64,000 nt of DNA, taken from sequence record NC_070987.1, one strand, 5' to 3'. Below, piece by piece: positions 5,335 to 43,200 of this stretch. Source of the stretch: Escherichia phage MN05. How positions within the stretch are numbered: the stretch's first letter is position 1; every line of letters begins with the position of its first letter. Position numbers and translations under genes: made by a program. Under the pieces are notes generated by a model, which was not told the origin of the DNA, did no database searches, and saw only the letters and a list, made by a program, of their open reading frames with translations.

Positions 5335-5366
5335 TAAGACCTATACAAGCCAGTGTGTAATGTATA
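5335..5366 (+). promoter_or_regulatory. putative late promoter (TAAGACCTA-N14-TAATGTATA)
   Basis: two-element motif identical in architecture to the site at 22433-22464; lies about 34 nt upstream of the ATG at 5400. Confidence 0.5.
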
Positions 5367-16868: not shown

Positions 16869-17903
16869 ATGGCATATGGAATATGGACACGCCCGGTTGG
16901 TCCGGGTCCAGCGGCACCTGCTGATATTTATATTGATAGTGGTAGCACATTCCCTCAACTCAGAAATAGAGTCAGTGGGAATTTCTCTTTTAGTGGAAAT
17001 ACCTGTGACTTGCCTATAAGTGGTTGGGATGGTAGTGGTCAGATAGTTGTAGTCCCAACAGGGTCTGTTGTTTGGGAGAGATATATACCTCCTAATGTAA
17101 CGTCTGATGTGTATTGGCTAACGGATATATCTGTTATTAATAACTCAACCTTCAGGGTTACTATGGACTATAACGTAAACGGTTGGGTATTTGATATGGC
17201 TTTTAATGTATATCAAATATGGCCTAGAGCTAACAGGAACTATGGAATCACATTCTCCAACTCTGCTGACTATTTCTCAATCTCTGATTCTGGAGTTGTT
17301 GGTCAATGTATTTGGGCTTGGGAGGGTGACATAAACGGTGCTCTTCAAATACCAGATATTGGTGGTTTTGATATGAGCCGAGCAACTGTCTATGCGAATT
17401 GGAGTAACGGCGGAGCAGGTCTGCTATACAACCCATCCAATAGGGTTGTTTATGTGTACCAGAACAGATCTCATGATAATGGTAACACAAACCAAACAGG
17501 ATCAATTGGCGGTGTTAGAATTGCCGTCTTCTGTGATGGTTCTGGAGTACCAACTCATAATGGAGGTTTAAATATCTTCTCTCCAAATGGGTCTCAGTGT
17601 GTATTTTCTACATATAGAACCCCTTTTAGTGTTGAGAGATTTATGCCTATGAGTGGCGGTAACACATCTCTGGCCTATCCAATGATACCATTATCTTACG
17701 GAGCAGGAGCAATAAGGGGCAAGGCTAGTGGTTGGTATTTTCAACACGCAAGATCTCACATGATGAATGGCTCTTCTTTCGGTACAGGTTTCGGAAGGAT
17801 GATTTACTCTTGGAGTAGTCAATATGATTTAGGAGGGGGTGGTGCCCTCGGGTTAAGTATTCCAATATTAGATGCTAGGAAAATATTCAGGAGTATACAA
17901 TAA
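16869..17903 (+). CDS. virion structural protein, hypothetical
   Basis: 344 aa ORF, tightly coupled to upstream gene. Confidence 0.35.
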   Translation: MAYGIWTRPVGPGPAAPADIYIDSGSTFPQLRNRVSGNFSFSGNTCDLPISGWDGSGQIVVVPTGSVVWERYIPPNVTSDVYWLTDISVINNSTFRVTMDYNVNGWVFDMAFNVYQIWPRANRNYGITFSNSADYFSISDSGVVGQCIWAWEGDINGALQIPDIGGFDMSRATVYANWSNGGAGLLYNPSNRVVYVYQNRSHDNGNTNQTGSIGGVRIAVFCDGSGVPTHNGGLNIFSPNGSQCVFSTYRTPFSVERFMPMSGGNTSLAYPMIPLSYGAGAIRGKASGWYFQHARSHMMNGSSFGTGFGRMIYSWSSQYDLGGGGALGLSIPILDARKIFRSIQ

Positions 17904-29441: not shown

Positions 29442-30725
<1,284 letters not shown>

Positions 30726-30965
30726 AATGCATCTCTTTATAAATAGTTTCCGTGTTCTTCTTCCAGTTAGATAAACCGGTAAGAACCCTCTGAGCAACTT
30801 CATCAGCTGCCCTACTTCTTTCAATCTCTAGCTCTTGCTGGTGCTTCTCTTTGTCCAGATTACTGCTGTCTGTTTGATATTCGTTAAACTTCATACCACC
30901 AAAGAATACAAGAGCTGAGAAAACGATAAACCCTAAGTTATCACTTAATGTGTTTTGCATATTGT

Positions 30966-30995
30966 CTCCAACGAAAAAAGCCACCCGGAGGTGGC
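30966..30995 (-). terminator. rho-independent terminator (minus strand)
   Basis: GCCACC-tccg-GGTGGC hairpin followed on the minus strand by TTTTTTCGTT. Confidence 0.55.
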
Positions 30996-31017
30996 TAAGC
31001 TATAACAAGGAGAGTTA

Positions 31018-31764
31018 TCAGAATGGGCTATCGTTGTCGTCTTCGTAAGTAGAAGCAGGCTCTTTATCAATCGTAGGGATTGAAGGAGTAGCTTCTTTCT
31101 GCTCTGTTTCAGAAGCACGAGTAATTTCACGACCAGCCAGAGGCATGTTCTTAGCGTCATTAGCTTGAGTAAGCAGGTTGCGCTGGAACGGGAACATCAG
31201 TTGATAGGATGCTACGTTCTCATCGGTTTCAGCATACGGTTCGAAGAATACCAGAGGACTACGAGCTTCGCCAACTGCTGCACGATATTTGGTTGGGATT
31301 GGAGAAATGGTCTTGATGGAGTTTTTAACTTCACCAGCTTTGTTAGTGTAAGAGTTAACCAGAATGTTAACAGGCTGACCTAACAGAACATCCTTGAACC
31401 AAGACAGATCACCTTTCAGTGCTTGAATACTTGGGTCAATCATCTTGCAAAGATCAAGAATACCAGAGTTCTTAGCTCGTGGGTTTACATCATAGCTCTT
31501 GAACTGGCAAGCAGGACGTGGTTCTAATGCCTTACCATCGGAATCTTTACCAGTAGCATCAACACCAATCAGCTCGAAAGCCAAATCCATACGGAAAGCT
31601 GGATTCTTAGGAGTTACTGCTTTGGTCTTCGGGTCAATCCAAGGGTCACGATTGTGAACACCCAAACCTACTACACGAACGATACGTGCTTCGTATTCAC
31701 CATCAGGGATGATGTCGTAGTTGGATTTACGGGAAGAAGTTGCGATAGTTGGAATCATAGACAT
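31018..31764 (-). CDS. ssDNA-binding protein, putative (acidic C-terminal tail)
   Basis: 248 aa; C-terminus ...STYEDDNDSPF resembles the acidic aromatic-terminated tails of E. coli SSB and T7 gp2.5; strong RBS AAGGAA. Confidence 0.45.
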   Translation of the reverse strand: MSMIPTIATSSRKSNYDIIPDGEYEARIVRVVGLGVHNRDPWIDPKTKAVTPKNPAFRMDLAFELIGVDATGKDSDGKALEPRPACQFKSYDVNPRAKNSGILDLCKMIDPSIQALKGDLSWFKDVLLGQPVNILVNSYTNKAGEVKNSIKTISPIPTKYRAAVGEARSPLVFFEPYAETDENVASYQLMFPFQRNLLTQANDAKNMPLAGREITRASETEQKEATPSIPTIDKEPASTYEDDNDSPF

Positions 31765-31819
31765 ATTTTAATTTCCTTATTTAATTTTGAAAGATTGTTG
31801 CTCTCTTTGAGCGGTTATG

Positions 31820-31840
31820 TATAATATACATTATAACTTT
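31820..31840 (-). promoter_or_regulatory. putative promoter with TAATGTATA element (minus strand)
   Basis: minus-strand TTATAATGTATATTATAC about 60 nt upstream of the SSB-like gene start. Confidence 0.45.
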
Positions 31841-31860
31841 TGTAAGATAAGTATCATTTT

Positions 31861-31894
31861 ATTGGTAGTAGATACTCACTAATGATAATGTATA
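31861..31894 (+). promoter_or_regulatory. promoter-like element ATTGGTAGTAGATA-N11-TAATGTATA facing a non-coding region
   Basis: same bipartite element as the minus-strand site at 43167-43200; oriented rightward into about 300 nt with no ATG on the plus strand. Confidence 0.35.
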
Positions 31895-32328
31895 TAAGGT
31901 AGAGTTAGAGAATAACTCTTGCACGGGACTGACGACGATAAGGCGCAGACGACAATCTCTCATAAGTTTGTAAGAAATTGAGAGACTACCGGAAGGGCAG
32001 GAGCCACCTGCGAGATAAAAATAGAGAATTAAGGAATCCTTGATTTAGGTTGTAGGGACTCCTAGGGACTTTGATTCTCTATTTAAAAGAATATTAATTA
32101 CTTACTACCTAAATAATTAACTAGCTTACTTAAACCAAATTCAAGAATAATAGATAAAAAGATTATTCCTAAGAAAGCTAAGAAGTAAAGGATATAAGTT
32201 ACCATTCAAGTAAACCTTTAAAATTAGATTTTTCTACTATCCTCTGATAATGAAGATTAGAATCAGCTTGTTTCTTTAACATCTCATTATATCTATCTCT
32301 GATAGAGTCTTTATAAACTACAGGTTCT

Positions 32329-32832
32329 TTAAATAATGAGATCTTGTTCTTTTCTTCTTTCATCGAAAACCTTCCTAATCTCTTGCAGAGAAACAGCTTT
32401 ATAATTAATTTGCTCCATTGATGTACAGAAATATCTCCAATCATTAATTACATGGTTATGAGTATGAGCATAAATATTAAACTTCCCTCTCATCTCATCA
32501 GTGTGAATAGGAATATGAGTTACCCAAAACTCTTTATATTTATAATCACCAGAGATTCTACGGAAGACTTTCATCATATCAGGGAGAAGTTCTAACCTGT
32601 CATGGTTCCCTAAGACTAGATGCTTCTCTCCTCTAACTTCAGCGATGATATCAAGGGCATACTTTTCAAACACCCAATCACCGGTAAAGAAAACTTTATC
32701 ACGTTTGGTTACGTGGTCAAAAGCAGCCAGAATTGCTTTGTCATGCTCTTCAATGTTTTTAAATTGCTTACGAAAACTACAGATGTTGCGATGGCCTAAG
32801 TGACCATCTCCTGCAAAATAAACTTCAGCCAT
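32329..32832 (-). CDS. calcineurin-like metallophosphoesterase
   Basis: 167 aa; GDGHLGH, FTGDWV, LGNHD and HTHNH motifs match the metallophosphatase signature. Confidence 0.6.
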   Translation of the reverse strand: MAEVYFAGDGHLGHRNICSFRKQFKNIEEHDKAILAAFDHVTKRDKVFFTGDWVFEKYALDIIAEVRGEKHLVLGNHDRLELLPDMMKVFRRISGDYKYKEFWVTHIPIHTDEMRGKFNIYAHTHNHVINDWRYFCTSMEQINYKAVSLQEIRKVFDERRKEQDLII

Positions 32833-32841
32833 AAAGACCTC

Positions 32842-33057
32842 TTAAATCAAGCATCCATCACAGGTTAAGTCACCTAATAGGGACAGGGAGAGTAATCTGG
32901 ATTGTTCATCGCTGTACAGTTGATCAATCTCTTCTTTAAGTTTTGCCAATTCCATAAAATTAATAAGCTGTCCATGTTCTAGACAGTCTGTTTTCAATAT
33001 GAATAAAACATCAGCGTCTTTTGAATCTTCACTTGAGTATTTATCAATGTATTCCAT
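32842..33057 (-). CDS. hypothetical protein
   Basis: 71 aa ORF in minus-strand operon. Confidence 0.3.
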   Translation of the reverse strand: MEYIDKYSSEDSKDADVLFILKTDCLEHGQLINFMELAKLKEEIDQLYSDEQSRLLSLSLLGDLTCDGCLI

Positions 33058-33059
33058 TT

Positions 33060-33281
33060 TTATGCCACATCTCCTTGTTTGTTGTTAATAACATCCAGTG
33101 CTGTATAAGCTTTACCTGTTCCTAGATATTCTAGAACTGGAGGATTCTTCTTTTCTTCAGCGACTACATAAGGTGTGATCTTTCCTTTCAGTACAGCCTG
33201 AGATGCTTTAGCACTGTCTTCAGAGGTATGAATAGTGGTAAGCTCTTTCTTTCCAATCTTATAAGTGTGAATCCAAATCAT
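33060..33281 (-). CDS. hypothetical protein
   Basis: 73 aa ORF in minus-strand operon. Confidence 0.3.
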   Translation of the reverse strand: MIWIHTYKIGKKELTTIHTSEDSAKASQAVLKGKITPYVVAEEKKNPPVLEYLGTGKAYTALDVINNKQGDVA

Positions 33282-33441
33282 ACTTCTTCCTTATATTCCC
33301 AATTTCTTTCATAATATCCAGAGTTATAGTTTAGGGCGCACTTCTCGGCCTCTTCTATGTCGTCAGTGTTTAGGATATTTACCCACCCTCCAGTCTCATC
33401 AAAACCTTCTTCTTCCTCATTAATCCATACACTGTATTTCT

Positions 33442-33834
33442 TCATCGAATCACCAAAGGCTCTTCAGAGTACACAGGAGCGGCTATTTCTACAGGAGGTG
33501 CTGCCCTAAGGTCATTAAGTCTTACGCCCTTCAGCATACCATCTAGGTGGTCCTTTTTGGGGATTCCAACAGGGAAGTCATCAATCCAGATATCTACAAA
33601 GAAACCTAGCTGTCGACAGACCTCATCCTTCTGCACACCGTTGCAAAAGATGATAGGAATTTGCAAACACTCTGCATCAATCTTAATGTCGTGGTTATCG
33701 TACCCATTAGGCTCTGCAAAGCGATAAGTTACAAAACGTACATCATAACCTTTCGCTTGCATTAATGTCACCACAGAGCGCCACAGCTCCTTATCTGAGG
33801 TGTAAGTGTCATCATAATCTAAACCAATATTCAT
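33442..33834 (-). CDS. HAD-family phosphatase-like protein
   Basis: start revised to the ATG with AAAGGA RBS; N-terminal GLDYDDT (DxDxT) and C-terminal DIWIDD resemble HAD motifs I and IV. Confidence 0.4.
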   Translation of the reverse strand: MNIGLDYDDTYTSDKELWRSVVTLMQAKGYDVRFVTYRFAEPNGYDNHDIKIDAECLQIPIIFCNGVQKDEVCRQLGFFVDIWIDDFPVGIPKKDHLDGMLKGVRLNDLRAAPPVEIAAPVYSEEPLVIR

Positions 33835-42241: not shown

Positions 42242-42820
42242 TTAGTAAGACACGTCACCACTTGAATGGGACATGTTGCTCTTGACGAAGTAGCAATACT
42301 TGCCAAGACCTTCATTAATTTCTTGAAGCATACTCTGATCGACAGGGTAGGTGGCTAAATCGCCATCAAACTCATCCATCTTCTCAATAATACACATCAA
42401 GGTCATGCACATATCAGAGAGCATACCGTCCATATCCAGATCAGCATTACCCTCTGAGAACCAAGCATGAGAGATGTAGTTAGCTGCTGTAGCATCCACT
42501 TTAACACAGTGGTAACGCATACGTTCAGCAATACGATCTCCTACCTGTCGTGCGTAATCTTCCAGCTCATCAAACATACCATGAACACCCTGAAATCCTG
42601 CACCAGAGACGTTCCAGTGATAGTTTTTAGCTTTGATATGCAAGAGTTCCATGTTAGCTTGTAAGCAGCTCAGGATGTGTTCTAGGCTATTTCCGCTAAT
42701 CATGCCTTGCATCGTTTCAAGGCGAGAGATTGAAAGCTCAGACCGGTCTAACATGTTATATTCTGCACGACCAATCTCAGGTAAATCAAAGACATTCTTA
42801 TGCATTTGGCTTTTCTCCAT
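42242..42820 (-). CDS. Dps/ferritin-like protein
   Basis: LQANMELLHIKAKNYHWNVSGAGFQGVHGMFDELEDYARQVGDRIAERM matches the Dps signature (K..N.HWNV.G..F...H..F.E.Y......D..AER); start taken at an internal ATG. Confidence 0.55.
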   Translation of the reverse strand: MEKSQMHKNVFDLPEIGRAEYNMLDRSELSISRLETMQGMISGNSLEHILSCLQANMELLHIKAKNYHWNVSGAGFQGVHGMFDELEDYARQVGDRIAERMRYHCVKVDATAANYISHAWFSEGNADLDMDGMLSDMCMTLMCIIEKMDEFDGDLATYPVDQSMLQEINEGLGKYCYFVKSNMSHSSGDVSY

Positions 42821-43127
42821 CAAGTTCAACTGAATTAGCAACGTTACGTTCCAGATTGTCAATTACCTGCTGGGTAATTACGATGCAGTTCTGTGGGTCT
42901 ACTGACTTAGAACGCCCCATTTCAGGGTCATACACCTTAACTCGCTTAGCAGTTGAACCTGTAACCTGAAGAACCTTCAACAGATACCCCTGATTACCAA
43001 TAGACCAAGCAACAACATCACGATTCTTGATAAAGCGACCAAGCATATCACGATGATAAAACTGTTGCATCACCTTGGATTTTGTAATCTCTTCAGTGGG
43101 CGGGGCCACTTTACTCAAATCTAACAT
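42798..43127 (-). CDS. hypothetical protein
   Basis: 109 aa ORF downstream of a promoter-like element. Confidence 0.3.
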   Translation of the reverse strand: MLDLSKVAPPTEEITKSKVMQQFYHRDMLGRFIKNRDVVAWSIGNQGYLLKVLQVTGSTAKRVKVYDPEMGRSKSVDPQNCIVITQQVIDNLERNVANSVELDGEKPNA

Positions 43128-43166
43128 AACTCTCTCCTGTAAAATACAAATTCTTATTGTACTCTA

Positions 43167-43200
43167 TATACATTTGAGAGTTATCATATCTACTACCAAT
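43167..43200 (-). promoter_or_regulatory. putative promoter ATTGGTAGTAGATA-N11-AAATGTATA (minus strand)
   Basis: bipartite element with spacing identical to the plus-strand copy at 31861-31894; about 40 nt upstream of the ATG at 43127. Confidence 0.4.

Follow-up and report, generated by a model that had tools for sequence, protein, structure and literature searches.

The DNA between positions 31765 and 32200 of the 64,000-nt stretch of Escherichia phage MN05 that we analysed (NC_070987.1; hereafter the window) raises the question of what a rightward promoter can serve where all neighbouring genes lie on the opposite (minus) strand and no conserved plus-strand open reading frame (ORF) follows. 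Most likely, to judge from sequence comparison, this orphan promoter makes a folded untranslated RNA that is conserved in three related genera. We favour, with a probability of about 0.45, the more specific reading that the locus is a new non-coding RNA gene, in which a structured RNA carrying a protein-recognised module is the functional product. The rightward promoter and its RNA have apparently not been described before. By its relatives, the window belongs to a phiEco32-like phage (Kuravirus). Phage phiEco32 is a model for takeover of host RNA polymerase by a phage sigma factor, and its promoter set, numbering six, has been considered known. If our reading is true, a seventh, strictly conserved promoter that makes RNA instead of protein would add an unrecognised player to the phiEco32 programme, at a site adjoining the promoter upstream of a putative single-stranded DNA-binding protein (SSB) gene and, further downstream, the sigma factor gene. 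Moreover, Kuraviruses are common candidates for phage therapy, and an unannotated RNA gene with two interchangeable cassettes would matter for their annotation and engineering. Among virulent coliphages, we know of no earlier case of a modular RNA synthesised under the phage's own sigma factor.

A megablast search with positions 31000-33000 found 97 relatives among GenBank phage records, nearly all of them Escherichia or Shigella phages of ~75-78 kb; the annotated ones belong to Kuravirus and sister genera in the Gordonclarkvirinae (phiEco32 group). An earlier note on this DNA had proposed a replication origin and/or a rightward non-coding or antisense RNA for the region, and had set down beforehand that absence of conservation in related genomes would count against the proposal. 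Region 31765-32200 is retained in 97 of the 97 relatives. Promoters were surveyed in 31 distinct versions of the locus, taken from GenBank phages of three genera, IMG/VR and metagenomes, and 25 unique sequences entered the RNA alignment, the covariation analysis and the comparison of strand folding.

Promoters of the phiEco32 sigma factor gp36 are defined by a single element, tAATGTAtA, 6-8 bp downstream of which transcription starts; six of them have been validated by others, upstream of phiEco32 genes 6, 13, 26, 40, 58, and 68 (PMC8948821, PMC4331800). The 9-bp sequence TAATGTATA is this published element, and it occurs six times in the window compared to an expected 0.70 (0 of 100 shuffles reach six). 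All elements that had been listed for the region are present (both TAATGTATA copies, ATTGGTAGTAGATA, the TAGGGACT repeat, an inverted repeat, and GACGA), and the two divergent promoter elements among them are real, matching the experimentally defined gp36 consensus. The minus-strand copy (31825-31833), an exact match here and present in all 31 versions, is P40, because a published gp36 promoter sits upstream of gene 40. The plus-strand copy (31886-31894), likewise an exact match, is gene-less. It forms the downstream half of a bipartite promoter in which ATTGGTAGTAGATA (31861-31874, plus strand), occupying the -35 region, is followed by exactly 11 bases and then by TAATGTATA. This second half is exact in 29 of the 31 versions and carries one mismatch in the remaining two, the upstream element reads TGGTAGTAGATA in 24 versions and TGGTAGTATATC in seven, and the spacer is 11 nt long in every version, with at least nine different spacer sequences. 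These comparisons show the rightward promoter to be under selection. Its transcription would start at ~31900-31902 if the published distance of 6-8 bp applies (PMC8948821).

The window holds exactly two copies of the 14-mer ATTGGTAGTAGATA, both of which precede AATGTATATA by 11 bases. The second copy belongs to a minus-strand promoter, ATTGGTAGTAGATA-N11-AAATGTATATA (43200-43166), which has 14 + 10 bases identical to those of the rightward promoter, is its only such twin in the window, and is followed by a 5' hairpin (GTACAA..TTGTAT) and ORF 42798-43127. A gp36 promoter upstream of phiEco32 gene 68 has been published (PMC4331800), to which the promoter at 43166-43200 probably corresponds; we refer to it as P68-type. 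The shared 14-mer and 11-nt spacing of the twins suggest that some gp36 promoters form a bipartite subclass distinguished by an upstream element, though the class has been described as single-element. Thus, the rightward promoter has the same 9-bp element as P6, P13, P26, P40, P58, and P68, of which P40 is the leftward copy here. By contrast, the published promoters precede genes and follow gene orientation, whereas the rightward one, a predicted promoter, is gene-less and points against its gene cluster. Scans for sigma-70 promoters also fit the rightward promoter to TTGGTA-16-GATAAT at 31862-31889, and the P40 element overlaps a sigma-70-like ATGATA-16-TATAAT at 31857-31830. Since both divergent promoters match weak sigma-70 patterns, early use by the host holoenzyme is possible.

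Downstream of the rightward promoter, coding capacity is absent. The claim that ~300 nt beyond it hold no plus-strand ATG proved correct and extends to GTG, neither of which occurs in 31895-32249 (mononucleotide shuffles give P ~0.0007 over 308 nt and ~0.008 over the 203 that are non-coding). In a few relatives a single ATG lies a few bases past the promoter element, near the predicted start. Comparison of the window with phiEco32 and 101114UKE3 revealed no conserved ORF on either strand of the RNA region; ORFs of at least 20 aa differ among the three in frame, start, and length, and we rejected a hidden small protein for this lack of conservation. The non-coding hub had been given as ~430 bp. 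Its first 333 bp (31765-32097) are indeed non-coding, but the span ends there because 32098-32205 encodes a conserved 35-aa hydrophobic peptide on the minus strand (gene 41; phi32_41, phrog_24970), convergent with the predicted RNA.

The RNA is predicted to be ~165-195 nt long (~185 nt in the window, ~31900-32085) and to consist, in order, of a 5' hairpin (H1), an exchangeable cassette, and hairpins H3 and H4. H1 (31901-31919, plus strand; AGAGUU-AGAGAAU-AACUCU) opens exactly at the predicted start and exists in four stem versions that all keep their pairing. Pair 4-20 is UA in 23 sequences and GC in two, pair 6-18 is GC in 15 and GU in 10, and pair 7-17 is CG in 20, UA in three, and AU in two. 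Two pairs are altered on both sides (compensatory changes in 7 cells). The H1 covariation score is 0.056, compared to at most 0.018 for controls slid along the alignment, and is reached by none of 500 shuffles, a statistic that overstates independence since the sequences are mutually related. In the 10 sequences with G-U, the minus strand would instead place A opposite C, so that this pairing works in a plus-strand RNA only. Structural covariation across related phages, which had been suggested as a check, is present in H1 but lacking in H3 and H4, which are invariant. Of the relatives examined, ev_rybdy3 and SR02 alone have the spacer and H1 type of the window. The window pairs this type with cassette A, while ev_rybdy3 has cassette B and SR02 probably has B, by match length and identity. 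None of the 97 GenBank relatives matches 31861-31990 above ~90% in ungapped alignment, making the locus of the window a new mosaic.

The variable cassette occupies 31924-31988 of the plus strand and was delimited by alignments, with its types folded separately. Here it is of type A, which forms two hairpins and is otherwise found in ES17-like phages and ECBP2. Type B, which is unrelated and shorter, is carried by phiEco32, SU7, EK010, EP335, and most others. Each type folds into hairpins of its own, and cassette A has a single compensatory change, from UA to CG (pair 32-49 of ECBP2). Since Kuravirus and Suseptimavirus each contain both types, recombination has exchanged them. Cassette A holds a third GGGACU and the recurring GACGA units that had been pointed out, which do exist (31931, 31934, and 31948) but are confined to this cassette and so missing from most relatives.

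Beyond the cassette lies a core of ~96 nt in which each relative has 94-100% identity to the window; identity at third codon positions of gene 40 (first 63 codons) falls to 72-80% in other genera. The boundaries of the conserved block coincide in all lineages, while flanks and cassette differ, which speaks for purifying selection rather than a recent recombination block; conservation from recent recombination alone is unlikely for the same reason. The core contains H3 (31997-32011, plus strand; GCAGG-AG(C/A)CA-CCUGC), whose five pairs are the same in all 25 sequences and whose sole variable position is in the loop, and H4 (32020-32083, plus strand), a long, nearly invariant 64-nt hairpin read from folds and from an inverted repeat, AAATAGAGAATTAA / TTGATTCTCTATTT, at 32019-32032 and 32071-32084 (14 nt, 93% complementary). 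H4 has an outer stem of 15 bp with two G-U pairs, followed by inner helices, and encloses the direct repeat TAGGGACT-CC-TAGGGACT (32053-32060 and 32063-32070, plus strand). In one lineage each TAGGGACT copy lacks one G (AGGACT...AGGACT); every relative with this double loss also lacks gene 41. H4 is the probable 3' end of the RNA. The plus-strand RNA is more stable than its complement in all 25 sequences, by 7.1 kcal/mol on average. The proposal of a rightward non-coding RNA is thus backed by several kinds of comparative evidence: a strictly conserved promoter with a fixed spacer, covariation in H1, constraint on the core, plus-strand folding, and the lack of a conserved ORF.

These data also bear on the idea that the core acts only on the minus strand or as DNA, as an unusual terminator or insulator closing the upstream operon right before P40 or as a platform for a phage DNA-binding protein, with a rightward promoter that merely stimulates P40 by divergent transcription and an RNA that is a by-product. 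We consider this very unlikely. It would account for the invariant UUUUUAU that follows H4 on the minus strand, a better terminator tail than that of the plus strand; so read, H4 resembles the terminator of the upstream operon. The minus strand does fold significantly (each strand is more stable than its shuffles, at z = -3.45 for plus and z = -4.39 for minus). The TAGGGACT copies lie 10 bp apart and in one lineage changed in concert, as paired protein sites would, and the two divergent TAATGTATA elements are just 52 bp apart in most phages. Yet the G-U pair of H1 and the two invariant G-U pairs of H4 are mismatches on the minus strand, and the consistent stability advantage of the plus strand extends to H4 by itself (-23.5 kcal/mol compared to -18.2 kcal/mol). 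A terminator scan did not call H4, which has an AU-rich stem and a large interior of ~34 nt. Selection acts separately on the bipartite promoter, with its fixed spacer of 11 nt, and ES17-like phages separate the two promoters by ~130 bp more, losing neither.

An insertion of this size between the divergent promoters is found in SDYTW1 (L005, ~330-480), in ES17- and myPSH2311-like phages, and in metagenome loci L017 and L028-L032. Within it are several hairpins and ACTACCGAAGGGTGGTAG, which partly copies the sequence directly preceding H3; the insertion could be a second small RNA or the remnant of a duplication.

In the favoured reading, the region would be a transcription hub in which leftward P40 stands back to back with a seventh, gene-less gp36 promoter. 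The latter would fire against the direction of all neighbouring genes, perhaps also read by host sigma-70, and would yield an untranslated, stable, structured RNA that accumulates during middle and late infection. Its invariant H3-H4 module would be bound sequence-specifically by a phage or host protein, with the RNA serving as decoy or scaffold, and H4 would set or protect the 3' end, its other strand acting as terminator of the upstream operon. A sponge of the CsrB type for a CsrA-like protein was considered, but the enrichment of GGA is too weak to support it: the RNA has 4-7 GGA motifs compared to ~4 expected (a rough estimate from base composition), only one or two of them in predicted loops. 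The paired G deletions in the TAGGGACT copies leave GGA intact.

Several observations weigh against the favoured reading, beside the relatedness of the sequences. Covariation is limited to H1; the 27 pairs of H3 and H4 offer no informative variation, as they never vary, and it is thermodynamics that supports their predicted pairing. In relatives, two single substitutions even disrupt predicted plus-strand pairs of H4. Short 5' hairpins like H1 also follow P40 and P68, which makes H1 the mark of a transcript rather than of a special stable RNA. The U-tract after H4 is weak on the plus strand (UAUUUAAAAG, UAUUU) and better on the minus strand, which makes the 3' end of the RNA uncertain. No binding partner or target of the RNA was identified, and complementary or direct k-mers of 11-12 nt within the phage are at chance level, with none of 13 nt or longer. 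For the phiEco32 group, the accessible literature contains no transcript map (none for the rightward strand), replication origin, or non-coding RNA. The rightward element is not among the six gp36 promoters published in that literature, though the primary phiEco32 papers may mention this promoter, and may already have seen, tested, or dismissed it.

The convergence of the predicted RNA with gene 41 invites another explanation, antisense control, to which we give some credence but which we regard as unlikely. The rightward RNA and the mRNA of the leftward operon (genes 57 to 41) would share H4 as a bidirectional terminator, so that their 3' ends are complementary over ~65 nt and leftward read-through into gene 40 is complementary to the whole RNA. 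Pairing or polymerase collision would trim or silence upstream middle-gene mRNA, including that of gene 41; in the presence of gp36, gene 40 and the sigma gene could in this way become independent of upstream transcription. The two units are indeed convergent, with an A-tract, stem, and T-tract on both sides of H4 and the peptide gene immediately downstream. The terminator scan found no plus-strand terminator within 1 kb, and read-through would be antisense to middle genes. The architecture recalls convergent toxin/antisense pairs with a shared terminator; as in par/Fst-type pairs, a small hydrophobic peptide gene faces an untranslated RNA, with a hairpin flanked by A- and T-tracts between them. 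We know of no toxicity of the gene 41 peptide.

The fate of gene 41 in relatives argues otherwise. Although conserved in many, gene 41 is deleted in ECBP2, EK010, Paul, XT32, NC-B, TH34, TH42, and Bas86, and the RNA locus is intact in all eight; counted as lineages, eight or more without gene 41 retain promoter, H1, cassette, H3, and H4. Unlike a toxin gene of the par/Fst type, gene 41 lies inside an operon, overlaps the stop codon of the gene before it, and shows no promoter of its own. A type I toxin-antitoxin system with the 35-aa peptide was rejected as the main function, since the RNA persists without the peptide gene. More generally, antisense pairing survives any mutation, leaving the invariance of ~96 nt unexplained, and the genes on both sides have been reported in the same middle class (PMC4281155).

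A third explanation is a replication origin, which the earlier note had also proposed. If transcription-primed, phage DNA polymerase would there extend a short transcript as the AT-rich DNA after H4 opens. In the primary origin of T7 and in oriF and oriG of T4, the transcript of a gene-less phage promoter primes replication, and the rightward promoter is analogous to phiOL, phiOR, and phi1.1A/B of T7 in being gene-less, phage-specific, and followed by AT-rich DNA. The window phage presumably has a T7-like set of replication genes. The promoter also points against all neighbouring genes near the middle of the genome (36.6-37.0 kb of the 77.5 kb of phiEco32), adjoins the putative SSB gene, with a DNA polymerase gene 3 kb away, and precedes the AT-rich stretch at 32085-32200. 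Nevertheless, we judge an origin improbable, having found nothing that specifically supports it. GC skew mirrors gene orientation only, with its turn at ~27 kb, and the repeats are 8-mers in two copies, fewer than the three or more iterons taken as the mark of an array. Here, unlike in T7-like origins, ~185 nt of conserved RNA, predicted to be structured, lie between promoter and AT-rich DNA, and priming predicts neither a covarying 5' hairpin nor swappable cassettes. The AT-rich stretch, moreover, is mostly coding sequence of gene 41 and is largely lost in several relatives, and the SSB identity of the neighbouring gene is itself unconfirmed.

That gene, the gene 40 homologue (31018..31764, minus strand), is the first gene served by P40. 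In relatives it is annotated as phi32_40 (phiEco32) and as ssDNA-binding protein (Ptacy1479). The label SSB-like, given to it earlier, could not be confirmed: its product has no match to Pfam or to PDB sequences, and its PHROGs family, phrog_6599, has no assigned function. The label rests on the one GenBank annotation and on an acidic C-terminal tail, ...EDDNDSPF. Downstream of gene 40 and in the same direction lies the sigma factor gene (gp36 homologue; 29821-30465, minus strand).

A more speculative role for the RNA is that of a dedicated regulator or cofactor of the phage takeover machinery, with an invariant module that binds protein and a swappable cassette that sets specificity (e.g., for a host factor or defence system). 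Here, gp36 would make the RNA right beside the promoter that feeds its own gene; as a variant, the RNA would be the primer of a T7-style origin. We hold such a role to be improbable as well.

The RNA appears to be private to this phage group. An Rfam scan of 30500-33500 with E up to 10 gave no match in 31765-32200, a blastn search of 5,426 E. coli genomes gave no match to the region, and an exact search of 185,579 species genomes with two core patterns gave none either; host mimicry or host origin was set aside on the results from these two genome collections. A covariance model of H3-H4 detects only the element itself in the window, where it is thus single-copy, and has no hit in three IMG/VR relatives with 67-69% identity in gene 40. 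Phages 7-11, GAP52, and Privateer have no such locus and at most ~100 nt of intergenic DNA upstream of the gene 40 homologue. In its length of 150-200 nt, promoter of its own, multiple hairpins, non-coding nature, and conservation within one group, the predicted RNA is like phi29 pRNA and T4 RNAs C and D; it differs from them in having an exchangeable internal cassette and has no sequence or Rfam similarity to them. We know of no link of the predicted RNA to packaging or tRNA clusters.

Other features of the gp36 promoters merit mention. The predicted transcripts from P40, the rightward promoter, and the P68-type promoter each open with a short hairpin no more than a few bases from the predicted start (31800-31812, minus strand; 31901-31919, plus strand; and ~43150-43165, minus strand), which may be a general 5' feature of gp36-driven RNAs. 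The hairpin near the predicted 5' end of the P40 transcript reads GCUC-AAAGA-GAGC, and the block containing it, the P40 leader GATTGTTGCTCTCTTTGAGCGGTT, is identical in all aligned relatives. The P40 element itself sits within a near-palindrome, TTATGTATA-A-TATACATTA (31815-31833), which creates a rightward-facing gp36 element with one mismatch at P40; Kuravirus relatives conserve this palindrome better than Suseptimavirus does. Elsewhere in the window, copies of TAATGTATA at 5358, 11253 (one mismatch), 22456, 38466, and 43175 (one mismatch) probably match the other five published promoters. A further exact copy at 17204-17212 (plus strand) lies inside the late ORF 16869-17903, where it may serve as an internal late promoter; otherwise it is the one match of the six that arose by chance.

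At the scale of the genome, late structural genes occupy the plus strand up to ~27 kb, beyond which almost all large ORFs are on the minus strand. GC skew is ~0 across 30000-33000 despite the minus-strand genes there, compared to -0.11 to -0.19 in adjacent minus-strand regions. A scan for tRNA and tmRNA genes gave a single match, a tRNA-Arg gene (anticodon TCT) in the early region (62778-62853, minus strand). In YF01, a homing endonuclease gene (L043, 2125-2598) is inserted just past the phosphoesterase gene and explains ~450 bp of extra length; NJ01 and myPSH2311 have similar extra length, probably from the same insertion. A tie of these insertions to the RNA locus was rejected, as the insertion sits beyond the phosphoesterase gene.

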